This document shows, in pieces, positions 1,810 to 20,000 of a stretch of 20,000 nucleotides of DNA. A model generated the notes under the pieces. It saw only the letters and a list, made by a program, of their open reading frames with translations, was not told where the DNA came from and ran no database searches. Position numbers and translations under genes: made by a program. The stretch is from an uncultured virus (IMG/VR IMGVR_UViG_2938983465_000007) (lineage: Duplodnaviria > Heunggongvirae > Uroviricota > Caudoviricetes): IMG/VR virus record IMGVR_UViG_2938983465_000007. One strand, 5' to 3'. Position 1 is the stretch's first letter. Each line of letters starts with the position of its first letter.

Positions 1810-2114
1810 TCCCTATTCCCCTTGTTCCAGTAGTGCGTTGAGCTGAGCGAGATTGCGAAGAGACCAGGCCCCGTAGTCCTGGGCAAAGGCCAGAATGTCC
1901 GCCGGAGTGACACCGCTTTCCAGTAGCTCGGCGTCAGAACCGGCGGCGGGCCAGGTCGCTGCTTGAGTGCCGGCGGAAGCGGTGCGCGCTCCTGTGGCGG
2001 ACAAACTGGCGCCGAGGGCGGTGTTGAAGTCGCGCACCCAGCCGCGAGTGAAGACACAGCGAGGGATAGCAGTAGGCGCAGCACCAGGTGCCGCTCGGTA
2101 GGCGGTCGATACAT
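1806..2114 (-). CDS. o-spanin (Rz1-like lipoprotein) embedded out of frame in the i-spanin gene
   Basis: Signal peptide with lipobox-like LAAG-C, Pro-rich mature region, AGGAG about 10 nt upstream of the ATG; stop overlaps the next start (ATGA). Confidence 0.75.
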   Translation of the reverse strand: MYRPPTERHLVLRLLLSLAVSSLAAGCATSTPPSAPVCPPQERAPLPPALKQRPGPPPVLTPSYWKAVSLRRTFWPLPRTTGPGLFAISLSSTHYWNKGNRE

Positions 2115-2424
2115 GGGCGATTCGCTCCTGGAGTTGGTGTCGGGTGTCGGTCAGTTGCTGCTGTACCTGCAGCAGTTGCTCCTCGGCCAGGTTGGCGCGC
2201 GCGATCTGCTGCTTGTACTGGACCAGGCTGTCCTGAAGGACCTGGGCGCGCTCGTTGGCGTGCTGCATCTGCAGGTTGAGCAGAGCAGCGTCACCCTCCG
2301 CGCGGGCGGCGGCATACCCACGGTCGTAGCTGGCGGAGCCGTGGATCACCACAGCGGCGCCGCACAGCACTGCGCTCAGCACGAGCCAGAACGTACTGGT
2401 GCGTAGGAGGCTAAGGACGGCCAT
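1813..2424 (-). CDS. i-spanin (Rz-like), 203 aa
   Basis: N-terminal TM (FWLVLSAVLCGAAVVI), long Q/A/L-rich coiled coil, C-terminal CVFTRGWVRDFN; downstream of the endolysin. Confidence 0.8.
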   Translation of the reverse strand: MAVLSLLRTSTFWLVLSAVLCGAAVVIHGSASYDRGYAAARAEGDAALLNLQMQHANERAQVLQDSLVQYKQQIARANLAEEQLLQVQQQLTDTRHQLQERIAHVSTAYRAAPGAAPTAIPRCVFTRGWVRDFNTALGASLSATGARTASAGTQAATWPAAGSDAELLESGVTPADILAFAQDYGAWSLRNLAQLNALLEQGE

Positions 2425-4820: not shown

Positions 4821-5020
4821 TTACCCAGCATACCCAAGAGCTGACGGTAGACTCCCTCGATAAGGTCGGGCAAGGGTGGAGTGCTCTCTCTTTCCTCGAT
4901 GCCGAACCAGTACTGCTCTCGGGAGTCCAGCATCTGGTTTTGGCTAGTGACATAAGTCGTCACCAACTGCACAGCCAACTTCATGACTTCTCGCCTGGTT
5001 TCTTCACTGAAATCATTCAT
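4817..5020 (-). CDS. Small protein downstream of the repressor, 67 aa; resembles the MucR/Ros N-terminal domain
   Basis: GGAG RBS; starts 20 nt after the repressor stop; MNDFSEETRREVMKLAVQLVTTYVTSQ...LPDLIEGVYRQLLGMLGK. Confidence 0.7.
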   Translation of the reverse strand: MNDFSEETRREVMKLAVQLVTTYVTSQNQMLDSREQYWFGIEERESTPPLPDLIEGVYRQLLGMLGK

Positions 5021-5039
5021 CACAGCATCTCCGTAATCA

Positions 5040-5480
5040 TCATTCGCCGCCTTGGCGTTTCTCTTTCGCACGGTCCTTGTGCGCCAGAGCACTCGCTGTG
5101 CTCTCCATGGCTCTCCGTCCTTCTTCATCTGATCCCCGATAGTTCTCGATCAGGGCCTTTTCTCGCTGATTGAGCCTGTACTCGCCAAGCGGTTCAGCGA
5201 CGACTGAGTGTGTGACTGGATTGGTTTTTTCGGTCATATGTTGCGATGGCGCAACATATGCCTGATCAGTAGCGAGCGGCGCTCGCTGACCTGTCAATAC
5301 ATAAAGAACATCAACTCCGGCCGCCGCAATGGCGGCCAGGTATGCGGCATCTGGATGCCGCTCATCCTTCTCGTAGTTGATCTGCGCGCGCTTTTGCACC
5401 CCACCGACCTCAGCAAAAGAGGACTGGTTCATTCCTTTCCTCTCGCGCTCTTCCCTTAATCGTTCGCCGATGGTGCTCAA
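5040..5480 (-). CDS. Prophage repressor, XRE-family HTH without a peptidase domain, about 146 aa
   Basis: IGERLREERERKGMNQSSFAEVGGVQKRAQINYEKDERHPDAAYLAAI...DVLYVLTG; divergent from the gp16-like gene; probable TTG start at 5480. Confidence 0.88.
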   Translation of the reverse strand: MSTIGERLREERERKGMNQSSFAEVGGVQKRAQINYEKDERHPDAAYLAAIAAAGVDVLYVLTGQRAPLATDQAYVAPSQHMTEKTNPVTHSVVAEPLGEYRLNQREKALIENYRGSDEEGRRAMESTASALAHKDRAKEKRQGGE

Positions 5481-5519
5481 ATGATCACCTTTCGCTTGCA
5501 ATGTGCACGAATGAACACC
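5472..5519. promoter_or_regulatory. Two 18-bp operator-like imperfect palindromes
   Basis: GGTGCTCAAATGATCACC (5472-5489) and TGTGCACGAATGAACACC (5502-5519); 14/18 identical, 30 bp apart. Confidence 0.7.
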
Positions 5520-5524
5520 ATAAT
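5496..5524 (+). promoter_or_regulatory. Sigma70 early promoter
   Basis: TTGCAA-N17-CATAAT upstream of the first early gene. Confidence 0.75.
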
Positions 5525-5576
5525 CAATCCAACAAAACACAAACATCATTCAGCAACCAGTCAAGGAGCCACCGCC

Positions 5577-5786
5577 ATGGCTACCCAGAAGGCACTGACC
5601 CCTGACCAGGTCAAACAGCGTTTCCGCCAACGCGGAATCACCATTACCCAGTGGGCCGCAGAGCATGGTTACAAGCGCAACGCTGTGTACCGCGTACTCA
5701 ACGGCTTCGACAAAGCCAACTACGGCCAGGCCCACGACATCGCCGTAGCCCTCGGCCTCAAGGCCTGCGACCCCGTCGCCGCCTAA
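5577..5786 (+). CDS. Ner/Cro-equivalent DNA-binding protein (BcepMu gp16 family), 69 aa
   Basis: LTPDQVKQRFRQRGITITQWAAEHGY...VYRVLNG...GQAHDIAVALGLK; AAGGAG RBS. Confidence 0.88.
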   Translation: MATQKALTPDQVKQRFRQRGITITQWAAEHGYKRNAVYRVLNGFDKANYGQAHDIAVALGLKACDPVAA

Positions 5787-5831
5787 TTCTTTCGCCTCCA
5801 ACAACAGCAGCGAGGGACACCGCCATGTCCA

Positions 5832-6152
5832 TCAATCGTTTTCAGGCTTCTGGCCAGCGCCTGGCTGCTTGGGCTCGCCAGCAAGGCTTGGTGCCGGCAT
5901 CAGTTGAAACCCTGAACGCCGCAGCAGCACCTCGGGTTCATCAACCAGCATCCCAAGCATTCGCTGAAACAGCACGTCCTGAAGCGAGTCCGGCTCTATC
6001 TGCTGGTTGTGCCAGTCCGCAAGTAGACGGGCGTACTCCGCTGTGTCCAGCTGCCCCGTCTTGCCCAGTGCCAGCACTAACGCCTGAAGCAGTTGCATCA
6101 CTCCCTCGATGCCTTCCAGAGCCCAGTCCCGGCCCGTTTCCTGTTCTTCCAT
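5832..6152 (-). CDS. Hypothetical helical protein antisense to the early operon, 106 aa
   Basis: AGGAGG RBS about 4-5 nt before the ATG; amphipathic-helix composition, whereas the overlapping plus frame is low-complexity P/A/S-rich. Confidence 0.7.
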   Translation of the reverse strand: MEEQETGRDWALEGIEGVMQLLQALVLALGKTGQLDTAEYARLLADWHNQQIEPDSLQDVLFQRMLGMLVDEPEVLLRRSGFQLMPAPSLAGEPKQPGAGQKPEND

Positions 6153-6178
6153 CCGTCCTCCTAACGAGGGTCACCGCC

Positions 6179-6859
6179 ATGACCGATCAACCGCAACTCA
6201 TGACCGAGGAGATCGAACTGATCCCCCATCCCATGGACGCCTGGCGTGCCGCGCTCAACGCGCTGATCGCCTGCGCCCCTGGCGACAGTGCAGCCATCGC
6301 CGTACACCTGGCCGAAGCCCGCCAGCAGGCCCTGGTGTTCGTCGATCGCACTGCTGCCACCGAGGGCACCCGCAAGTTGGTCGACCGTCTGATGCTGATC
6401 GGCGCTGGCCGTATCGTGGGTGATCGCCTGCAGTCACAAGCCGCTCCAGCAACCGTTGCCTCCCTAAACCGCCGCGTAACCGCCCGCATGACCGTAGTGG
6501 TCAACGGCACGGACTACGACGTATCCACCATGCCCGGCGTGATGGTGGGCGACATGATCCGCGTCGATCCCAACAACATGCCTCCAGCGCTCAATCCTGA
6601 TGCTGTTCTCGGAGGATTCTTTCAACCTGGCCGGGTGTTTTCCCTGCCTGAAGCAGGTACTCCCTCAGGACCTGATCAGCCAAGTGCTCAAGGAAATGAG
6701 CTACCTCCGGTTGCACCTGCAACAGATCGGCGTGGCGGCGCATCTCAGCCTGCAAACGCTGAGTGTCAATCACACCCTGCTGCTGCAGAAAGCCAGCCAG
6801 CACCACATACCCACGCTCAAGCGCCTCAAACCGCGCCGCAAAAGCCTGATCAGCCATAA
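6179..6859 (+). CDS. Early protein, 226 aa (344 aa if started at 5825), containing a transposase C-terminal-domain-like segment
   Basis: GAGGG RBS; RRVTARMTVVVNGTDYDVSTMPGVMVGDMIRV aligns with the window's own transposase. Confidence 0.7.
   Translation: MTDQPQLMTEEIELIPHPMDAWRAALNALIACAPGDSAAIAVHLAEARQQALVFVDRTAATEGTRKLVDRLMLIGAGRIVGDRLQSQAAPATVASLNRRVTARMTVVVNGTDYDVSTMPGVMVGDMIRVDPNNMPPALNPDAVLGGFFQPGRVFSLPEAGTPSGPDQPSAQGNELPPVAPATDRRGGASQPANAECQSHPAAAESQPAPHTHAQAPQTAPQKPDQP
6591..6857 (-). CDS. Hypothetical helical protein antisense to the early operon, 88 aa
   Basis: GAGG RBS before ATG 6857; MADQAFAARFEALERGYVVLAGFLQQQGVIDTQRL...; the overlapping plus frame is P/Q/A-rich. Confidence 0.7.
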   Translation of the reverse strand: MADQAFAARFEALERGYVVLAGFLQQQGVIDTQRLQAEMRRHADLLQVQPEVAHFLEHLADQVLREYLLQAGKTPGQVERILREQHQD

Positions 6860-6984
6860 CCCGTACCTCGTTCTCGTTGGTGAATGTACCCCAACAGAGT
6901 GGCCATTTGGTAACGACATTGCCAAGGGCAAAACAGAGTTTTTGATTGGAAGCCGCCTCAGACGGCCCAAAGGAGCCCCATCCA

Positions 6985-7473
6985 ATGAAGCGTCGAAATT
7001 GGAAACACTGGGTGCCGCGCTCGCCAGCCGACGCACTGGACGGCTGCGCGCAGCTGGCCATGCAGCGCTACAACCGAGGAATCGAACGTTTGGCCTGTGA
7101 TCACCTGGGCCAGAACAACCACAGTTCTCTCTATAAGTGGATCGGCAACGGCCGCCTGCCGCTGAGCCTGATCCTGCCGCTGGAGCACGCCTGCGGCCTG
7201 CCGCTGATCACCCGCTACCTGGCCGCCGCTCACGGCAAGCTCCTGGTCGACATCCCGGTTGGCAAGGCCTGCAACGCCAGCGACCTGCAGCAGCTGCAGG
7301 GCGTGCTGCACAACGCCACCGGCGCGCTGATGGCCTTCTACGACGGCAAGCAAACCGCCGAACAGACCCTGGACGCCATTCGCGCCGGCCTCGAATCCCT
7401 CGCTTGGCACCACGGCAACGTCGCCCAGGCAGAAACCCCTCAACTGGACTTTGGAGTGGCTGACGATGAGTAA
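6985..7473 (+). CDS. Early regulatory protein, CII-like HTH candidate, 162 aa
   Basis: AAGGAG RBS; IERLA...LGQNNHSSLYKWIGNGRLP HTH-like pattern followed by LEHACG...ITRYLA. Confidence 0.65.
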   Translation: MKRRNWKHWVPRSPADALDGCAQLAMQRYNRGIERLACDHLGQNNHSSLYKWIGNGRLPLSLILPLEHACGLPLITRYLAAAHGKLLVDIPVGKACNASDLQQLQGVLHNATGALMAFYDGKQTAEQTLDAIRAGLESLAWHHGNVAQAETPQLDFGVADDE

Positions 7474-7726
7474 GGCCATCGACCTGCAGGCCCTGCTGCG
7501 GCGCCTGGACGAGCAAGCCTATGAGCAGCTCTGCGCCGAAGCTGCGCGTCTTGCCGAAGAGAACGAGTACCTGCGCACCGAGCTGACCCGCATGGAGGAA
7601 TGTGCCGAAGGATGGTGCAACGAGGCCCAGCATCTCCACCAGCAACTGGCGGAAGCCACCGCTGGCCAGGCCGCTATCACCCAGTCCGGCGCCCTGATCG
7701 TCATTCCGATGGAGCGCTGCGCATGA
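7466..7726 (+). CDS. Hypothetical coiled-coil protein, 86 aa
   Basis: GGAG RBS; overlaps both neighbours. Confidence 0.7.
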   Translation: MSKAIDLQALLRRLDEQAYEQLCAEAARLAEENEYLRTELTRMEECAEGWCNEAQHLHQQLAEATAGQAAITQSGALIVIPMERCA

Positions 7727-8022
7727 GCACCAAACGCACCCACGACAGCGTCAGCCGCGCCCTGCGAGTACTCAAGGCCCTGCGCGGCCACACCCTCAAT
7801 GGGCTGAGTAACGCCGAGCTGGCCAAGGCGCTGGGCGAGAGCCCGGCGAACATCACCCGCTACATGGACAGCCTGATCGAGGCCGGCTTCGCCACTCGCC
7901 TCGACAGCGGACGCTTCGCCCCGAGCATCGGCTTCCTGCAATACGCGATGGCCACCGCCGAGGAGCTGCAGCGCGGCGCCGCACGCATCAACGAGATCCA
8001 GGCGCGCATCAGCGCCCACTAA
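7723..8022 (+). CDS. IclR-type winged-HTH protein, 99 aa
   Basis: SVSRALRVLKAL...GLSNAELAKALGESPANITRYMDSLIEAGFA...SGRF. Confidence 0.85.
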   Translation: MSTKRTHDSVSRALRVLKALRGHTLNGLSNAELAKALGESPANITRYMDSLIEAGFATRLDSGRFAPSIGFLQYAMATAEELQRGAARINEIQARISAH

Positions 8023-8079
8023 ACAAGGAGCAACACCCATGAACTATCGGAAATCGGCTGGTGATCGGAGGGTTGCCTG

Positions 8080-9036
8080 ATGGCTCGCAAATCACAAGCC
8101 GCTGTTGAACTGCTCGAAGATGACATCGAGCAAGGTCAGGCCCTGCTAGCCAAGCAGCACCAAATGGCCGCGCTCAACACCGAACACGACAATCAGGTCC
8201 GCGCTGTGGCTGCACAACTGGGCTATCAACTACCGGCCGATTGCACGGACCCAGACCTGATCCAGCGCGACATCGCCGCCAACATGCGCCGCAGCGTAGA
8301 GGCGTGCCTTGAAGTGGGGCGTGGGCTGCAAGTGCTCAAGTCGGCATGCATCCATGGCAGCTTTATCGAGCGACTGAATGCGTTGGGACTTGAGCGCACA
8401 GTTGCCTTCCGCTTCATGGACGCTGCGACCAAATTCTCTGCGCTCGGTAGCAACGCCACTTTGACGAAGGCCATTGACAGCCAGTCGAAGCTCTTCGAAA
8501 TGCTCGTCCTGGAGGATGAAGAGATCCAGGAGCTGGAACTCACTGGCCAGACCGGCGAGCTGAGCATTGACGATGTGGCCACCATGTCGGTCAAGGAGTT
8601 GCGCAAGGCCCTGCGCGAGGCCCGTGAAGACAAGAAGGCCCTCGCCCAGGTCAACGCCGACAAGAACACCAAGATCGACGAACTGGCTGCTCAACTGGCG
8701 CGAAAGCCGCTGGTGGTCGTGCAGCCGATGGATGAGCAGTTGGCCGAACGACGCGAAGAACTCGCCACCAAGGCCACCGCGGCCGAAGCCGCCATTGCCG
8801 GCGCACTGCATCCAGCCGTGCAACTGCTGGTCGAGAAAGGCGAAGAGTCCGGGCAAGACCAGCGTCCGATCATCGCCGGCATGCTCGCCCAGGTAGAGCG
8901 GGCACTGCTGCAAATCCGCGCTGAATACAACATCCCCGCCACGCCGTCCGCCAGTGCCACGCCGACCTGGATGGCTGATGACAGCGAGGAGGCGGTGAAG
9001 GCCGCGTTGGCCGAAGCCGCCAAGCAGGGTGAGTAA
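8080..9036 (+). CDS. DUF3102-like protein upstream of the transposase, 318 aa
   Basis: RRSVEACLEVGRGLQVLKSACIHGSFIERL...TVAFRFMDAA and DDVATMSVKELRKALRE motifs; position typical of B3-like phages. Confidence 0.75.
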   Translation: MARKSQAAVELLEDDIEQGQALLAKQHQMAALNTEHDNQVRAVAAQLGYQLPADCTDPDLIQRDIAANMRRSVEACLEVGRGLQVLKSACIHGSFIERLNALGLERTVAFRFMDAATKFSALGSNATLTKAIDSQSKLFEMLVLEDEEIQELELTGQTGELSIDDVATMSVKELRKALREAREDKKALAQVNADKNTKIDELAAQLARKPLVVVQPMDEQLAERREELATKATAAEAAIAGALHPAVQLLVEKGEESGQDQRPIIAGMLAQVERALLQIRAEYNIPATPSASATPTWMADDSEEAVKAALAEAAKQGE

Positions 9037-9040
9037 GCCT

Positions 9041-10819
9041 ATGAGCGCCGTGATGACTCAACGCCTCGTTGCCCTGGCACACGAGCTGGATCGCTCCACC
9101 GCGAGCAGAACAGAGCTGTGCCAAGCGGCTGCGGACGATCTGCGCATCTCCCTGGCGACTCTGTACCGGAAATTGAAGGAGGTCACTGTGACCCAGCCCC
9201 GAAAGAAGCGGGTCGATGCCGGCACCTCAGCGTTGACTCGCGATGAGGCGGAGCTACTCAGTACCACGCTGATCCGCTCCATCCGCGATAACGACAAGCA
9301 ACTCAGCACCCTGGAGCGCGCCGTCGAGCGTCTTCGCAACAACGGCAAGATCGTCGCAGGCTCTGTGGATCACCGTACTGGTGAAGTCACGCTCATGTCG
9401 CTCAGCGCTATAGGCCGGGCCTTGCGTGCCTATGGCTTGCACCCTGAGCAACTACTGCGCCCGGCCCCAGCGGTCGAGTTGGTCAGTCTGCATCCCAACC
9501 ACGTCTGGCAGATCGACGCCTCGATCTCCACTCAGTTCTACCTGGCCAATGACGGCGCGCGCGCCATGAATAAGGCCGAGTTCTACGACGGCAAGCCAGA
9601 GAATCTCAAGCGCATCGAGAAACAGCGCCTATGGCGTTACGTCATCACGGACCACACCAGCGGTACCCTGTACGTGCATTACGTGCTCGGCGCTGAAAGC
9701 GCGGAGAACCTCTGCCATGTACTGATCAGCGCGATGGTCAAGCGTGGTGATACCGACCCGTTCCATGGCGTGCCCTTCATGATCATGACCGACCCCGGTG
9801 CGGCCATGACCTCCTCGATGTTCCGCAACCTGTGTCGCGCCCTGGGCATCGAACTGATCATCAACAAAGTCGGTAACGCACGCGCCAAGGGCCAGGTCGA
9901 GCAGGCCCACAACATCGTCGAGCGTGAGTTTGAAAGTGGCCTGCAACTGATGCAGAAACCGCGCACTCTGGACGAGATCAACGGGCTGGCCGGACGCTGG
10001 ATGCGGCACTACAACGCCACCGCCATCCACACCCGACATCACCGCACTCGCTACGCGGCCTGGATGACGATCAAGCCTGAGCAACTGCGCATTGCACCGC
10101 CTGCAGAGACGATGCGCGAACTGGCCATTGCCGCACCGGAGAAACGCAAGGTTTCTGCCCGGCTGCGGGTGCCGTTCCGCGGCGCCGAATACGACGTATC
10201 CGTTATCCAGCACTTGCAGGTCGGTGACCAGGTGCTGGTTACCCGCAACCCGTTCCGCGATGCGGATAGCGCTCAGGTTGTGCTTGTTGGAGACGACGGC
10301 CGCGAGCACTACCAGGTGGTCGAGCGTGTTGAGCGTGACGACAACGGGTTCGCGGCTAACGCTGCCACTCGCCGGGTGATTGGCGAAGAGTACCGAGCCT
10401 TGCCAGAGACCGCCGCGCAGAAGGACCGCAAGCACCTGGACCAGCTCGCCACCGGCACCAGCTCGGTCACGGAGGCAGAAAAGGCGATCAGGTCGCGAGC
10501 AGTGCCGTTCAACGGCGAGATCGATCCGTTCAAGGAACAGGCCAACACCGTGTTGCCAACCTACCTGCCCAAGCGCGGTACCGAACTGGAGACTCGCGTC
10601 ACCGTGGCTGGCTTGGCCTCGGTCGAGCTGAAACCACTGAACCGCATCGAGCTAGCCAAGGCGCTGCGCGCACGTATGGGTACAGCCTGGACACCAGCAT
10701 CCATGGAGTGGCTCAAGACCAACTACCCGGACGGCGCTATGGAGGAGCAACTCGACAGCATCGTTCAGCAGTTGCAGGCACCTGCACGCCCAAGCCTGCG
10801 CCTGGTAGGGGGTGAGTAA
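9041..10819 (+). CDS. DDE transposase A (Mu-like/integrase core)
   Basis: N-terminal HTH (ISLATLYRKL); catalytic triad contexts WQIDAS, MTDPG and AKGQVEQAH; alternative GTG start at 9029. Confidence 0.95.
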   Translation: MSAVMTQRLVALAHELDRSTASRTELCQAAADDLRISLATLYRKLKEVTVTQPRKKRVDAGTSALTRDEAELLSTTLIRSIRDNDKQLSTLERAVERLRNNGKIVAGSVDHRTGEVTLMSLSAIGRALRAYGLHPEQLLRPAPAVELVSLHPNHVWQIDASISTQFYLANDGARAMNKAEFYDGKPENLKRIEKQRLWRYVITDHTSGTLYVHYVLGAESAENLCHVLISAMVKRGDTDPFHGVPFMIMTDPGAAMTSSMFRNLCRALGIELIINKVGNARAKGQVEQAHNIVEREFESGLQLMQKPRTLDEINGLAGRWMRHYNATAIHTRHHRTRYAAWMTIKPEQLRIAPPAETMRELAIAAPEKRKVSARLRVPFRGAEYDVSVIQHLQVGDQVLVTRNPFRDADSAQVVLVGDDGREHYQVVERVERDDNGFAANAATRRVIGEEYRALPETAAQKDRKHLDQLATGTSSVTEAEKAIRSRAVPFNGEIDPFKEQANTVLPTYLPKRGTELETRVTVAGLASVELKPLNRIELAKALRARMGTAWTPASMEWLKTNYPDGAMEEQLDSIVQQLQAPARPSLRLVGGE

Positions 10820-11988
10820 TGCTGCGTCTGAAGGAAGTACTCGCAACCCTCAGCCTTGGCCAGGCTGATCTGGCCAGGGCGATGAAGCTCAGCCCGGCAG
10901 CCATCGCTCAGTTGGTCAATCACGACCAGTGGCCCAAGTCCATCGACAAGCAGGAGCTGTGGGGCCGTATGGCCGACTGGCTCTATGACGTTGGTGCGCA
11001 AGACGGCGACATCGCCGCCTTGGAAGAAGAAGTGGAGTCGCCGCGCGCCAACGCGGCGACTCCTGCAACCCCGGAAACCAATCACGAAAACCAGGAGTGC
11101 CCCGACATGCTAATGGCAAAACAATCCCTGCGGCCAGACACCAAGCGCGCCTTCGGCGTGATGGTCGACCCGTTTGGCGATCTACGCTGCGCCGAAGACA
11201 TGTATTTCAGCGGCGATATTCGCTACATCCGCGAATCGATGTACCAAACCGCACGCCATGACGGCTTCCTCGCCATCGTGGGCGAGTCCGGTGCCGGCAA
11301 GAGCACTCTGCGTCGCGATCTGACCCACCGTCTTCGCAACGAGCCGGTCATAACCATCGACCCCTTCGTGGTTGGCATGGAGGCCAACGACATCAAGGGC
11401 AAGACCCTGAAAGCGACTCACATCGCAGAAGCCATCATGTATGCCGTGGCACCGCTGGAAACACCTAAGTCCAGCCCCGAAGCTCGCTTCCGCCAGGTCC
11501 ACACCTGCCTCAAGAACTCATACGCCGCCGGCAACCGTCATGTCGTGATCATAGAAGAGGCGCACTCGATCCCGACCCAGACCCTCAACCACCTCAAGCG
11601 CATGCGCGATCAGTTCGAGGACGGATTTGACAAGCTGCTCAGCATCATCCTGATCGGTCAGCCCGAACTGCTCATCAAGCTGTCGCCACGCAACGCCGAC
11701 GTGCGCGAAGTAGCCCAGCGGGTCGAGATCGCCATCTTGCCGGCCATCCCCTCGGGTGATGTAGAGCAGCACCTGGCATTTCGTGTCGGACGCGCCGGCA
11801 AGAAGCTGGACGAACTGATCGACCAGGGTGGCATCCACGCCATCGTTGAACGCCTCGCCAGCTCCGGCAAGGACGGAACCAGCCAGCTCTATCCGTTGGC
11901 GATCGGAAACCTCTTCAACGCAGCGCTGAACCTGGCTGCCGAGATCGGTGAAAGCCGCATTACCGCTGATGTGGTCAAGGGGGTGTGA
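10819..11988 (+). CDS. Transposition protein B, AAA+ ATPase (ExeA-like) with N-terminal HTH, 389 aa
   Basis: Walker A GESGAGKS, Walker B VIIEEAH, ILIGQPEL; coupled to the transposase stop (TAATG). Confidence 0.92.
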   Translation: MLRLKEVLATLSLGQADLARAMKLSPAAIAQLVNHDQWPKSIDKQELWGRMADWLYDVGAQDGDIAALEEEVESPRANAATPATPETNHENQECPDMLMAKQSLRPDTKRAFGVMVDPFGDLRCAEDMYFSGDIRYIRESMYQTARHDGFLAIVGESGAGKSTLRRDLTHRLRNEPVITIDPFVVGMEANDIKGKTLKATHIAEAIMYAVAPLETPKSSPEARFRQVHTCLKNSYAAGNRHVVIIEEAHSIPTQTLNHLKRMRDQFEDGFDKLLSIILIGQPELLIKLSPRNADVREVAQRVEIAILPAIPSGDVEQHLAFRVGRAGKKLDELIDQGGIHAIVERLASSGKDGTSQLYPLAIGNLFNAALNLAAEIGESRITADVVKGV

Positions 11989-11989
11989 G

Positions 11990-12331
11990 ATGAACGTCGT
12001 ACCGATCACTGGCCGCCGCCCTGAAGAGCATCCGAAAGCTACCCATCTGCCGCTCTGCACCGTGCTGACGCCAGAGCTGGCCCGCTGCCTGGAGGCCGTC
12101 AACAGCGCCACCCGCGCCTTGCGTCAGGCGCGCATTCCGATTGAGCAGACGTCGGTGCTCGATCGCCGCCTGTTCATCCGCGAAGAGGATTCGCTGCGGC
12201 TGCACCGCCACTTCCGCAAAGCCATCCGCGGCATTCGCCAGACCACTTACGGGATGGTCACCGTCCATGTCGTCAGCCTGCTCGACGTCGACGTGGCCTG
12301 GACGACCCCGGTGAAGGAGCAGGATCAATGA
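11990..12331 (+). CDS. Hypothetical early protein, 113 aa
   Basis: ATG right after the B-protein stop; ATGA overlap with the next gene. Confidence 0.7.
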   Translation: MNVVPITGRRPEEHPKATHLPLCTVLTPELARCLEAVNSATRALRQARIPIEQTSVLDRRLFIREEDSLRLHRHFRKAIRGIRQTTYGMVTVHVVSLLDVDVAWTTPVKEQDQ

Positions 12332-16709: not shown

Positions 16710-17606
16710 GCTGCCGTCACCGTCGCCGCTACCATCGCCCCCGCCGTTGCCGTCCCCTCCCCCGCTGCCGTCGCCGCCATTGCCGGTGCCGCCGTCGTTG
16801 CCGCCGCCGTTGTTGTCTCCACCGCCATTGCCATCGCCGCCGCCGTCACCGCCCGGCGTGGTTGGGTCGGTTGGATCCGTGGGATCGGTCGGGGTCTTGA
16901 CGCAGGTAGTCCCCGACCACGACCAGCCGGGCGGGCAGCCGGGGTCGTTCGGGTCGGAAGGATCGGTGTTCGGGGTGTCGGGCGGGTTCAGCGAGTCGCC
17001 GGTCTGCGCGAAGGTGTAGGAATCGGCACCGCAATTCTGTCCGGTGCCCTTGAGGATGTAATTGCAGAAGCCGGTGGTGGTGGAGCCTTTGACCAGATAG
17101 CAACTGGCCGGGCTGGGGTTGCCGCCGTACTCGCAGCTTTGATAACAGGCGCTCGGTGCGCCGCCGTCGCCGACATAGTTCCGCCCGCCCGAGGTGACAA
17201 CAGGCGAGTCCGGGCCCTTGGCCGGAAACAGTTCGCCTTCCTTGCACTCTTCGGGTGGCGGCTTGCAGGCACCGTCGGCCGGATCGAGTTCTTGCTCTGG
17301 AGGACAGCTATCGCCAGTCAAGATGGTAGCCGACGTCTGCCAGGTGATTCCGCCAGTACCCGAAACATTGCACTGAACTTCCTTGTAGCTCAGTTTGTTG
17401 ATTTCCTTTAGCCAGTTGGCCGACGTGTTATCGAAGTAGTACTGGCACGCCGCCGTATAGGATGGAAAGAAGGCCGTGGGCTTTCCGGGGATGGAAATCT
17501 TCCATTGGTAGAAGTCCGCGCTCGCCAAGGAATGCCACAGCAACGAGACCAGCAGGCCCAGCAGCGGAAGAAGTCGGCCAAGGCCGGAACGTGCGTTGTT
17601 ACTCAT
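16707..17606 (-). pseudogene. coaA: Pf minor coat/attachment protein CoaA (pIII, PA0724 homologue), truncated by phage insertion
   Basis: Signal peptide, Cys-rich domains, PTD repeats and Gly-rich linker, then an abrupt stop after GDGDGS. The C-terminal domain and TM anchor of the full-length protein (over 400 aa) are missing. Alternative start at 17618. Confidence 0.92.
16710..16895 (-). repeat. Low-complexity coding repeats (PTD x3; GGDG/GGNG linker) in coaA
   Basis: Visible ccg/gcc-rich repeats encoding PTDPTDPTDPTTPGGDGGGDGNGGG.... Confidence 0.85.
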
Positions 17607-17619
17607 CCAGTCACCCATG

Positions 17620-17654
17620 AAAAAGCCCCCTGCCGGAAACTCCGGAGGGGGCTT
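17620..17654 (-). terminator. Intrinsic terminator downstream of coaB
   Basis: Minus strand AAGCCCCCT-CCGG-agttt-CCGG-c-AGGGGGCTT followed by TTT. Confidence 0.85.
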
Positions 17655-17672
17655 CCGCCTCGGTCTGTTCGG

Positions 17673-17750
17673 TTAGAAGAATTCGCCGGTCCGGTACCCG
17701 GTGATGAAGGCGCCGGCGAAGAACGCCCCCAACCACACCGACCAGAGCAC
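17673..17750 (-). CDS. Putative 25-aa hydrophobic mini-protein between coaB and the terminator
   Basis: GTG 3 nt after the coaB stop; MLWSVWLGAFFAGAFITGYRTGEFF*. Confidence 0.45.
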   Translation of the reverse strand: MLWSVWLGAFFAGAFITGYRTGEFF

Positions 17751-17753
17751 CCG

Positions 17754-18002
17754 TTACGCCTTGCGCAACATGCTGTAGATCAGGCCGGCGACGGCCAGGA
17801 TCACCAGGGCGCCGACGATGTAGCCGCCAATGGCCTTCATATCGCCCTGCCCATCGGTGATCGCCGATTCCACCGCGCTGGTGTCGATCACCCCGGCGAA
17901 GGCCGGCAGCGAAGTCGCGGCAGTGACGGAACCGGCGATGCACAGGTTGCGGAACGAGGCGATCGGGCTGAACTTGGCGATGCGTTGCTTCATTGCTTTC
18001 AT
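17754..18002 (-). CDS. coaB: Pf major coat protein CoaB (pVIII, PA0723 homologue), 82 aa
   Basis: Mature sequence GVIDTSAVESAITDGQGDMKAIGGYIVGALVILAVAGLIYSMLRKA matches the Pf1 coat protein. Confidence 0.98.
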   Translation of the reverse strand: MKAMKQRIAKFSPIASFRNLCIAGSVTAATSLPAFAGVIDTSAVESAITDGQGDMKAIGGYIVGALVILAVAGLIYSMLRKA

Positions 18003-18014
18003 GGTGTTTCCTCT

Positions 18015-18266
18015 CTACTTGGCTTTACGAAGAAGTGACGCGACCCAGCCAATCAAAAGCCCCGTCACGAACGATCCCAGGACGCCAGCGGCACCGATGC
18101 CGAAGGCTTCCGGGGAGAAACCACCGTTGACCAGGATGTCCACGTATCCAGCAGCCTCGGGCGGAATCAGGTAGGCCTGTTGCCATGCGAGTTCGCGACA
18201 CGCCGTGAAGCCCTCGGGGGTCGAGGTCCACGCGGTACACACCTGCACAGCGACAACGCCTGACAT
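18015..18266 (-). CDS. Pf PA0722 homologue (minor virion protein), 83 aa
   Basis: MSGVVAVQVCTAW...; C-terminal TM; position before coaB. Confidence 0.9.
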   Translation of the reverse strand: MSGVVAVQVCTAWTSTPEGFTACRELAWQQAYLIPPEAAGYVDILVNGGFSPEAFGIGAAGVLGSFVTGLLIGWVASLLRKAK

Positions 18267-18278
18267 AGCGATCAGTCC

Positions 18279-18371
18279 TCAAACAGCCAGGGAGGCCGCT
18301 AGGCCGTCGATCCAGCCCCAGGCGTAGCCGGTGGCCAGACCTACCGCGAACAGCGAGAGATAGCGGAGCAT
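18279..18371 (-). CDS. pfsE: PfsE (PA0721 homologue), 30-aa superinfection exclusion/minor coat protein
   Basis: Manual translation [39 protein letters not shown]. Confidence 0.9.
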
Positions 18372-18387
18372 CGCGGCCTCCTACGGC

Positions 18388-18822
18388 TTACGCCTTGGCG
18401 TCCGGGGACTTGTCTTGTTTGTCCTGGCCCTGCGGCTGCTGGGCCGGGCGCGGGGCTTGGGCCTGTGCTTGCGGGCGGGCCGGGGCTTGGGCGGTCGGCG
18501 CCATCGGCTTGCCGCCCACCGCCAACAGATCCACAAGGACTTGGGTATTGGTGATCCGACCGAAACGGTCTTGGGTCGGGCGGACCACGCTGGCGAACTT
18601 GCAGAGCACCGGCTGGCCTTCGAAGACGATGGCGTCCAGCAGGGTCGGCTCGATGTTGTATTCGCTGATCTCGAAGCCCTTGGCGTTGCCACGGGCACCT
18701 TCCGGGATCGGGGCGATGGACTGGACCGAGGCGTAGATTTCCCCGGTCTTGGTCGAGGTATAGGTGTCGGTCTTGGTGACCCACAGTTCGACGACGCCGC
18801 CTTGGGTTGCAAACATGTTCAT
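18388..18822 (-). CDS. Pf ssDNA-binding protein (gene V, PA0720 homologue), 144 aa
   Basis: MNMFATQGGVVELWVTKTDTYTSTKTGEIYASVQ... matches the Pf1 gene V protein; GAAGGAG RBS. Confidence 0.95.
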   Translation of the reverse strand: MNMFATQGGVVELWVTKTDTYTSTKTGEIYASVQSIAPIPEGARGNAKGFEISEYNIEPTLLDAIVFEGQPVLCKFASVVRPTQDRFGRITNTQVLVDLLAVGGKPMAPTAQAPARPQAQAQAPRPAQQPQGQDKQDKSPDAKA

Positions 18823-18955
18823 CGGTGTTTCTCCTTCAATTCGCCTTTTTCGGCGTGAGTTGTCCCGCTGCTGCAAATTCGGCTGTTTCGCCTTCATTCA
18901 GCGGTGTTGGGTGAAAGTGATGTGTGGGCGATCCCTTCGGGCCGGGCTCTATTCG

Positions 18956-19333
18956 CTAGCGAACCAAGCCAACCACGGGTGTTCGTCTCAGCCCATTCGA
19001 GTAACGGTCCCTATCGCAACGTCGTCTCCGACAGCCAAGGGGAACGCTTCCCCTTGGAACCCGCAGAGCAACACCAAGGGCTCTGCCCTTGTCATCCCGC
19101 TCTTGCCGCCGAGGGCTCGGGAGCGCGGGGCGGAGGAGCTGCCCCACACTCCCAAGCAGAGGCTGTTTCAGGGGGGAGGCGTTCAAGGGTGCGCTGCGCC
19201 CGTGCTTCCGTTCGCCGGAACGGTGAGGCTGTTCCGACGAGCCGGGAGCGCGGCCCTTGACCGGATCGGCCACGGTGCGGGCGGCTTGGATCAAGCAGAG
19301 CAGGAGCAGCGCTTTCAGGGTCTTAGCGAGCAT
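18956..19333 (-). CDS. PA0719 homologue, hypothetical 125 aa (coincides with a hairpin cluster)
   Basis: ORF in the canonical position with GGAGG RBS; composition atypical for a folded protein. Confidence 0.55.
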
Positions 19334-20000
19334 GGGTCAGCCCTCCAATTGGAATGCTTCGCGCACGGGCACAAAGGGCGTGGGCTTCCCGCTGTCGTAC
19401 ACAACGTGCCAGTACTTCGGCGGACGCCGGGACGGGTCGTGTTTCGCGCAGAAGGAACGGGGACGGCAGAGCCAGCGGCCACCTTCCAGATAGGGCAGCC
19501 CAGGGGGCCGGCAGTCCGGACACGGCGACGGGTTGTGCAATGGGATGGCCTGCCTTGCGGACCAGCACACAGAGCAGGCGCAGTCCGGGGCGTGGGTTTG
19601 GCGCAAGTAATTCGGAGACGACATGGTCAGCTTCCTCCTTATCTTGGCGAGCACGACCCCAGGCGAGAGCCTCAACCCGCAGGTCGGTCAGATAGGATTC
19701 TTCCGGCTGGGAGAGGTAGCCGGCGTCCATGAGGCCATCGATCAGCATCAGGGCGCGGTCGAAGGGTTCGCTGGGATGCTCTGCCGCGTGCAGCAGATAG
19801 CCCTCAAGGAAGCCCAACAAGGCGTTAATCGGGTTGCTCGACAGAACGCGCGCTACCTCATCAGCGCCTTCAAAGCTCTGCTCAACACGGAAGACCAGTT
19901 CGGCATTCAGGGAACGCATAGAGGCCTTGGCAGCCTGTTCAACCCGAGCGCGAAGAGCTGGAGGCATACGGAGCTTGAATTGCGGATCAGCGCGGCTCAT
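19323..20000 (-). CDS. Arc-family ribbon-helix-helix protein fused to a helical domain, with a read-through tail
   Basis: [43 protein letters not shown] is an Arc signature; ATG at the window edge. Confidence 0.8.
19337..19624 (-). CDS. pflM: PA0718 homologue (DUF5447, PflM), Cys-rich, 95 aa
   Basis: [17 protein letters not shown]...CPDC...C...FCAKHDP...[24 protein letters not shown]. Confidence 0.8.
   Translation of the reverse strand: MSSPNYLRQTHAPDCACSVCWSARQAIPLHNPSPCPDCRPPGLPYLEGGRWLCRPRSFCAKHDPSRRPPKYWHVVYDSGKPTPFVPVREAFQLEG

Follow-up and report, generated by a model that had tools for sequence, protein, structure and literature searches.

A transposase-barrel-like module in the early protein PM105_17 of a PM105-like Pseudomonas prophage

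The early region of the prophage

The window analysed here is a stretch of 20,000 nucleotides from an uncultured virus (IMG/VR record IMGVR_UViG_2938983465_000007), in which positions 5000-12000 match Pseudomonas phage vB_PaeS_PM105 (a transposable phage of the B3 type, Beetrevirus) with 100% identity. Altogether, 44 phage records match this region, 7 of them over at least 80% of the query, and the window is a PM105-like, Mu-like prophage (Beetrevirus). The PM105-type genome ends inside the window (base 1 of its record lies at about 16439) and is followed by Pf-like sequence; positions 16710-20000 are about 97.5% like Pf filamentous phages, with coat protein A, the ssDNA-binding protein and coat B. 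Since this match lies past the PM105-type genome end, the transposable prophage is inserted in a Pf prophage of a P. aeruginosa lysogen.

The repressor gene (5040-5432, minus strand) forms the end of a presumed lysogenic minus-strand unit, which starts upstream of 6857. The early operon runs in the opposite direction, its first gene coding for a ner-like helix-turn-helix protein (5577-5786, plus strand, assigned by annotation and PHROG) and being preceded by a promoter-like site (5496-5524). A minus-strand gene, PM105_18 (5832-6152, 106 aa, phrog_23931), stands between ner and PM105_17 (6179-6859, plus strand, 226 aa), the gene which is the subject of this work. PM105_17 is annotated as "hypothetical", is a homologue of Fc02 ORF10 and B3 ORF16, and the PM105 genome note is silent on it (PMC4777764). 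Further along the plus strand lie a CII-like gene (6985-7473), two small genes, gp13 (8080-9036), transposase A (9041-10819; a 592-aa DDE enzyme with an rve core) and the transposition ATPase B (10819-11988). An earlier note on this DNA had proposed from the sequence that PM105_17 is an early gene preceding A and B, and this is correct.

Some minor features of this region deserve mention. PM105_18 is missing in B3, Fc02 and H71, where ORF10 comes directly after ner, and it would join the minus-strand unit of the repressor. Upstream of its annotated start, the PM105_17 frame stays open as far as a GTG at 5651 (5651-6859, 402 aa), and an extended start of this kind is used by one database cluster (P0002, 344 aa); the extension from this GTG runs antisense to PM105_18 and probably results from faulty gene calling. 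In RNA-library contigs from three runs of three studies, positions 5241-5517 (275 nt, comprising the 5' part of the repressor gene and the operator region) are swapped for 274 other letters, with flanks about 99% identical, which probably corresponds to a heteroimmune variant of the same phage.

PM105_17 and its antisense partner

The first part of PM105_17 (aa 1-88, 6179-6442, plus strand) is a helical domain belonging to phrog_38063 (PHROG E 4.9e-30 over aa 8-91), for which AlphaFold2 (AF2) proposes three helices with low confidence and for which pN/pS is about 0.03-0.4. This domain is present in 50 phage records, including B3 ORF16 and the post-ner gene of Fc02, H71 and JBD67 (tblastn E about 1e-23 to Fc02, H71, B3, JBD67 and others). 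Fc02 ORF10 is 58% identical to PM105_17 (cluster P0001) over aa 9-89 (E 4e-23), and aa 1-78 are identical in D14F, U11 and Young. The position in the early operon, after ner and upstream of the CII-like gene, A and B, is the same in PM105, Ps60, B3, D14F, U11, Young, H71 and Fc02, with the minus-strand gene PM105_18 intercalated between ner and the ORF10-type gene in the PM105-type phages. Judged by the homology of its N-terminal domain to Fc02 ORF10, Ps56 gene 10 and B3 ORF16, and by its place in the operon, PM105_17 represents, in PM105, the early protein known in beetreviruses as "gene 10/ORF10".

This family has been linked to superinfection exclusion. According to the Fc02 study (PMC9936078), ORF10, the gene after ner, is transcribed together with ner from pE after induction; when expressed from a plasmid it excluded all phages tested, and premature stops abolished the exclusion. 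The same study describes a 7.9-kDa gene on the opposite strand, olg1 (also sie1), whose start abuts the end of ORF10; on a plasmid it also excluded superinfecting phages, premature stops again abolished the effect, and in the lysogen it is transcribed with the repressor from the distal promoter pC1 (PMC9936078). Superinfection exclusion by Ps56 gene 10 is cited there as well (PMC9936078). The published Fc02 primers place ORF10 at 1780-2271 and olg1 at 2051-2275 (minus strand) of the corresponding locus (L040).

The 3' half of PM105_17 is organized in the same way: a small antisense gene overlaps it and begins, with its ATG, right next to the stop of the ORF. This unannotated gene (6591-6857, minus strand) codes for 88 aa, matches phrog_37333 (E 8.9e-11) and has a GAGG 8 nt before its ATG. 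Its pN/pS lies between 0.10 and 0.29 across all 7 locus pairs compared (0.29 against 1.21 in the plus ORF frame). In the last stretch of PM105_17 (codons ~137-226, 6587-6859), a P/A/Q-rich read-through tail, the plus-frame pN/pS is 1.2-3.2 in six of the seven pairs and 0.75 in a near-identical pair, GC3 in this frame declines from 0.75 to 0.33, and the residues are unalignable between members of the family. The 88-aa antisense ORF is a real gene, and the tail of PM105_17 is unselected. The ORF 6179-6859 of the earlier note thus exists, as the annotated PM105_17, but just its first ~150 codons are coding-like in that frame. In consequence the annotation should be corrected: the sequence encoded by the final ~90 codons of PM105_17 is not under selection as protein, and the position of sie1/olg1 is taken by a gene which had not been annotated.

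The 88-aa gene occupies the relative place of olg1/sie1 in Fc02, and a BLASTP comparison of its product with Fc02 Olg1 detected no homology (E 2.6); the sister cassette of one related locus (L018) matches the PHROG of Olg1 (phrog_7132, E 4.2e-8). The corresponding slot of the relatives, behind the module described below, holds at least three different, unrelated-looking types of antisense cassette, always in the same phase relative to the plus ORF. The probability of the plus frame being open is 0.30-0.71 per cassette, with a product over four cassette types of about 0.04, so that selection keeping the plus frame open across the antisense gene is only weakly suggested. RNA-library contigs from four studies cover the PM105_17 region, although they show no strand and are no proof of transcription. 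A contig of 1,996 nt, found in two of the studies, corresponds to 5030-7026, from the repressor end to just upstream of the antisense gene, and such strandless contigs give a weak hint of a pC1-type unit.

The module and the transposase barrel

Between the N-terminal domain and the tail lies the segment on which the earlier note had focused, having seen a likeness to the transposase of the same phage. The translations concerned are RRVTARMTVVVNGTDYDVSTMPGVMVGDMIRV (6470-6565) and RKVSARLRVPFRGAEYDVSVIQHLQVGDQVLV (10145-10240), and their gapless alignment, as had been noticed, is real, with identity at 14 of 32 residues (56 of 96 bases). The shared 12-mer TACGACGTATCC is also confirmed: it occurs solely at 6515 and 10190, and two matches appeared in none of 200 shuffles. 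It codes in frame for YDVS in both genes, and the DNA around it is merely 58% alike, so that the 12-mer is accounted for by residues in common and by codon bias, and not by recent copying of DNA.

At the protein level, BLASTP of PM105_17 against transposase A finds 19 of 50 residues identical (35.8 bits, E 9e-7). When aa 79-160 of PM105_17 were searched with tblastn against 50,697 phage records, 66 records matched, 4 of which were self matches (PM105 and Ps60). Among the 36 non-self matches listed, 29 fell under transposase or integrase annotations (best E 1e-3) and three in other named genes (E 0.6-3). The transposase matches came from Mu-like phages of Pseudomonas, Burkholderia, E. coli, Klebsiella and Ralstonia, and lay at the same protein site. 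A profile check gave a significant result, with hhalign aligning 18 PM105_17-like proteins to 41 B3-type transposases with 96.3% probability and E 1.5e-9 over 39 columns (alignments A2 and A3), PM105_17 aa 94-132 falling onto transposase aa 365-403. On these sequence comparisons, the similarity between the PM105_17 segment and the transposase is homology, not chance.

The site matched in the transposase is a β-barrel. An AF2 model of transposase A, built from 41 sequences, has a mean pLDDT of 80 and predicts, after the RNase H-like core, a six-stranded barrel (aa 365-430 of 592, 10133-10330, plus strand) with pLDDT 83-89 and strands at 367-370, 376-379, 382-385, 397-402, 410-416 and 422-429; the module corresponds to aa 365-403(417). 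In structure comparisons the model is similar to ShCAST TnsB (Foldseek E 1e-17), with a VIA Z score of 19.7 over 377 aligned residues (model 1-431, thus spanning the barrel), as well as to IstA, Tn7 TnsB, MuA (4fcy_B, Foldseek E 1.6e-10) and the MuA core-domain entry 1bcm_B (E 1.4e-7). From the AF2 model and these Foldseek and VIA matches, the barrel of transposase A is the positional equivalent of domain II-β of MuA and TnsB. In MuA, the barrel is described as a non-specific DNA-binding, target-recognition domain (PMC3362531), and in TnsB as one that touches the target backbone and joins in the completion of an inter-subunit β-sheet (PMC9371665). The assignment of the segment to the barrel region after the DDE core, which had been anticipated for the transposase family of PM105, is consequently supported by hhalign, BLASTP and the AF2 model of A.

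Sequence libraries have little to say about this barrel. PDB sequence searches with the transposase and its profile returned retroviral integrase cores only, with no barrel match, and the module profile gave no PDB match at E<=10. In Pfam (E<=0.01), PM105_17 (P0001) matched no family and no barrel family was matched by either the module or the PM105 transposase; since transposase A itself yields rve alone, the Pfam library is without coverage of this barrel lineage. No usable match for the module was found in the ESM Atlas, and a comparison of aa 85-160 with longer proteins (database of 5.8 billion) was uninformative, with none of 74 candidates at E<=10.

The module (aa 97-150, about 54 aa, 6467-6628, plus strand), as delimited by profile match, conservation and pN/pS, comprises a core (aa 97-136, 6467-6586) followed about 12 residues later by a semi-conserved h-x-G-F/Y motif, and, from the hhalign alignment and the AF2 model of A, it aligns to strands 1-4(5) of the six in the barrel. 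Like domain II-β of MuA and TnsB, therefore, the module has a sequence relationship with the B3-type transposase barrel at the II-β position; unlike it, the module stands alone, without a catalytic core and with counterparts to strands 1-4(5) only. It shows no rve match and is preceded not by a DDE core but by the helical phrog_38063 domain, in keeping with the fusion to an unrelated helical N-terminus that had been described. The motif T-R-N-P-(W/F)-R of the transposases is D-P-N-N-M-P-P in the module. The module has a net charge of -1, which does not suggest strong DNA binding.

With regard to the origin of the module, its identity to individual B3-type transposases reaches 50-51% over 35-36 aa, compared with 37.5% over 56 aa for its own transposase, and the transposase consensus (..YDVSxVPxVMVG..) is closer to PM105_17 than PM105's own transposase is. 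Among the 40 of 79 HSP rows listed, 39 distinct transposases are represented, all matched at the same site with 32-51% identity. A phylogeny of 40 columns places the 29 stand-alone modules on one side of a branch and the 53 transposase rows on the other (SH-aLRT 93); with just 40 columns, the tree is consistent with a single old origin and is not proof of it. A recent duplication from the A gene of PM105 is ruled out by the 58% DNA identity, by the better matches to other transposases and by the tree. The earlier idea of a capture from the phage's own transposase is likewise not supported, the segment being closer to other B3-type transposases and grouping with stand-alone modules found on other N-termini.

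The module behaves as a cassette. In blastn comparisons with D14F, U11 and Young, DNA homology ends at 6411 and is found again only from 6880, and with two viral-contig loci (L018 and L019) it runs to 6593-6603 and resumes at 6855-6869. Because the breakpoints differ by relative, the variable region is made up of two sub-cassettes, A (6412-6593), which carries the module, and B (6594-6854), which carries the antisense gene. Among named phages, cassette A occurs in PM105 and Ps60 only (4 records at >=99% among the 50,697 phage records, corresponding to these 2 phages), and Fc02, B3, D14F, U11 and Young differ from PM105_17 in having no module and unrelated C-terminal halves. With the N-terminal domain in 50 records and the module limited to two phages, the module is dispensable for beetreviruses. 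It is found in 11 of 27 viral-contig loci (L013-L022 and L039) and in 18 Pseudomonas protein clusters, and the cassette is common to many Pseudomonas prophages.

The relatives show other variations in the same gene. In a locus of Pseudomonas chaetocerotis (L009, 3001-3810), the barrel-like module is preceded by an extra module of the ATRANGKxLLT... type, which is flanked by duplicated PATVA codons; L018 has this type of extra module behind the barrel-like one, and in D14F, U11 and Young a related extra module stands in place of the barrel-like one. These positions point to module shuffling within one gene. Two further loci (L010 and L030, ORF from 3001) carry an ORF10-family C-terminal variant with an end that looks, by eye, like a helix-turn-helix (..GRRQRLARAMGTSTQSVYRHV..).

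The module is also found in other proteins. An exhaustive phmmer search with aa 89-150 against 1.84 billion representatives (E<=1e-3) gave 16 matches, nine of them to small proteins with a single matching stretch (176-340 aa) and seven to long proteins with 4-9 stretches, which were set aside as repeat proteins (the one inspected, P0110, shows a "NGTTYDxSNPSGTE" repeat in tandem). Of the nine small proteins, three have an ORF10-type N-terminus and six another one. A Pfam Mor domain precedes the module in three (P0103, E 3.9e-12; P0106, 1e-7; P0114, 7e-10), and three more (P0108, P0111 and P0113) have an N-terminus that is Mor-like by eye, without a Pfam match. A metagenome scan with P0113 yielded a single locus, which was discarded as a chance match inside an unrelated membrane-protein gene. 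The three small proteins with a Pfam Mor domain resemble the activators of the Mor/C family (PF08765), the canonical members of which, including PM105_01 in the window, differ in having no C-terminal module, as PM105_17 differs in having no Mor domain. The module is a selected, portable unit, seen behind other (Mor-type) N-domains.

Proposed function of the module

The overall explanation that we consider probable is that PM105_17 is an ORF10-type protein with a transposase-barrel module that may modulate transposition. Its structural and evolutionary part can be held with considerably more assurance, the module being very probably an ancient paralogue of strands 1-4(5) of the B3/BcepMu-type transposase barrel. 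Concerning the mechanism, a tentative proposal can be made from the sequence relationships, in which the module would bind the ligand of the transposase barrel, either the backbone of the transpososomal or target DNA or, through β-sheet completion, the surface of a transposase. The ORF10-type N-domain might in this way be brought to the transposition machinery, and the outcome could be that the phage's own transposition is modulated or that of a rival is blocked. Both families, that of the module and that of the transposase, keep the polar signature R..V / Y-D-x-S / G with little or no variation, and since these polar positions, kept together with V, would be needless for a mere scaffold, a shared ligand is probable; the incompleteness of the barrel would suit it to strand complementation. 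Given that PM105_17 is made alongside the phage's own A and B, a dominant-negative decoy, one of the roles suggested in the earlier note, would have to spare its own transposase. Also weighing against the mechanism are the low-confidence AF2 model of PM105_17, the net charge of -1, the exclusion obtained with ORF10 proteins that have no module, and the absence of the module from most beetreviruses.

A more specific version of this mechanism, which we regard as unlikely, would make the module a domesticated, separately evolving copy of the II-β barrel, mounted on ORF10-type and Mor-type domains, that serves the transposable phages as an anti-transposition device. Acting as a superinfection-exclusion or timing factor, it might dock on the transpososome or on target DNA and stop target capture or assembly by rival Mu-like phages, with the phage's own enzyme spared. 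The Tn5 inhibitor protein, IS911 OrfA and the P-element KP repressor are transposase-derived regulators. The proposal shares with them the idea of a transposase fragment without catalytic activity that is produced along with the enzyme and can tune or poison the complex; unlike them, these being truncations or alternative products of the transposase gene, the module is an old, separately evolving paralogue on other domains. If the module does engage the transposition machinery, Mu-like phages would have in it a novel means of regulating or sabotaging transposition, and in any case a gene family already connected with exclusion between transposable phages of Pseudomonas aeruginosa contains a definite domain that lends itself to testing. 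The ORF10 gene family and its antisense partner are already published; at the level of titles and abstracts, the literature searched gave no account of a stand-alone barrel module, of its cassette nature or of Mor fusions.

About as likely as the mechanism by which the module would modulate transposition is that it is a generic small β domain for oligomerization or DNA binding, which shares the ancestry of the barrel and has no present link to transposition. Such a domain would serve ORF10-type and Mor-type N-domains, for instance by dimerising them or by tethering them to DNA or to the envelope for exclusion or regulation. Its occurrence behind Mor-type DNA-binding domains fits with this role, and, with the stand-alone modules forming a single old branch apart from the transposases, its function may have drifted. 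Moreover, in the Fc02 study, ORF10 excludes phages while having no module (PMC9936078), and, since the homologues reported there as tested (Fc02 ORF10 and Ps56 gene 10) are without it, exclusion needs no module. Against a generic role, the R, YDxS and G positions kept in both families suggest a shared ligand, and the named contexts of the module are so far, Mor fusions apart, all transposable phages.

A decaying, functionless relic of a transposase gene fragment, fused in frame by chance, is highly improbable. This possibility had been raised in the earlier note and would agree with a barrel that is just partly present, with the location in a recombination hot spot and with the lack of a confident fold (the AF2 model of PM105_17, from 18 homologues, has an unreliable mean pLDDT of 42.4 and one hairpin, at 105-114). 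The module is, however, kept by selection: the pN/pS in its plus frame is 0.23 (pS 0.227, pN 0.051), the lowest of the six frames, so that the selection check which had been proposed for the segment shows it to be under purifying selection. In the core, 37 of the 40 residues (aa 97-136) are invariant or at least 90% conserved in 18 proteins, the N-domains of which diverge by as much as 45%; in P0100 and P0101, identity is 58-66% in the module versus 45-48% in the N-domain. In proteins with unrelated N-termini the module still has 44-58% identity, and no frameshifted copy was found in the 11 translated loci carrying it (L013-L022 and L039).

Equally improbable is that 6467-6590 is conserved as DNA or RNA (a site, a terminator or the leader of a minus-strand lysogenic transcript) with the protein likeness incidental. 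In its favour, the region directly follows the minus-strand gene, beyond its stop and within the unit covered by the RNA-library contigs, and includes a 36-nt stretch with a single variable site in the closest 8 sequences. Against it, no terminator-like site was found in 6467-6590, the match to the transposase profile is at the protein level, and the distant copies vary mainly at third positions (21 of 39 codons, in 10 distinct DNA versions), which rules out a DNA-level constraint on the module and places its conservation at the level of the protein.
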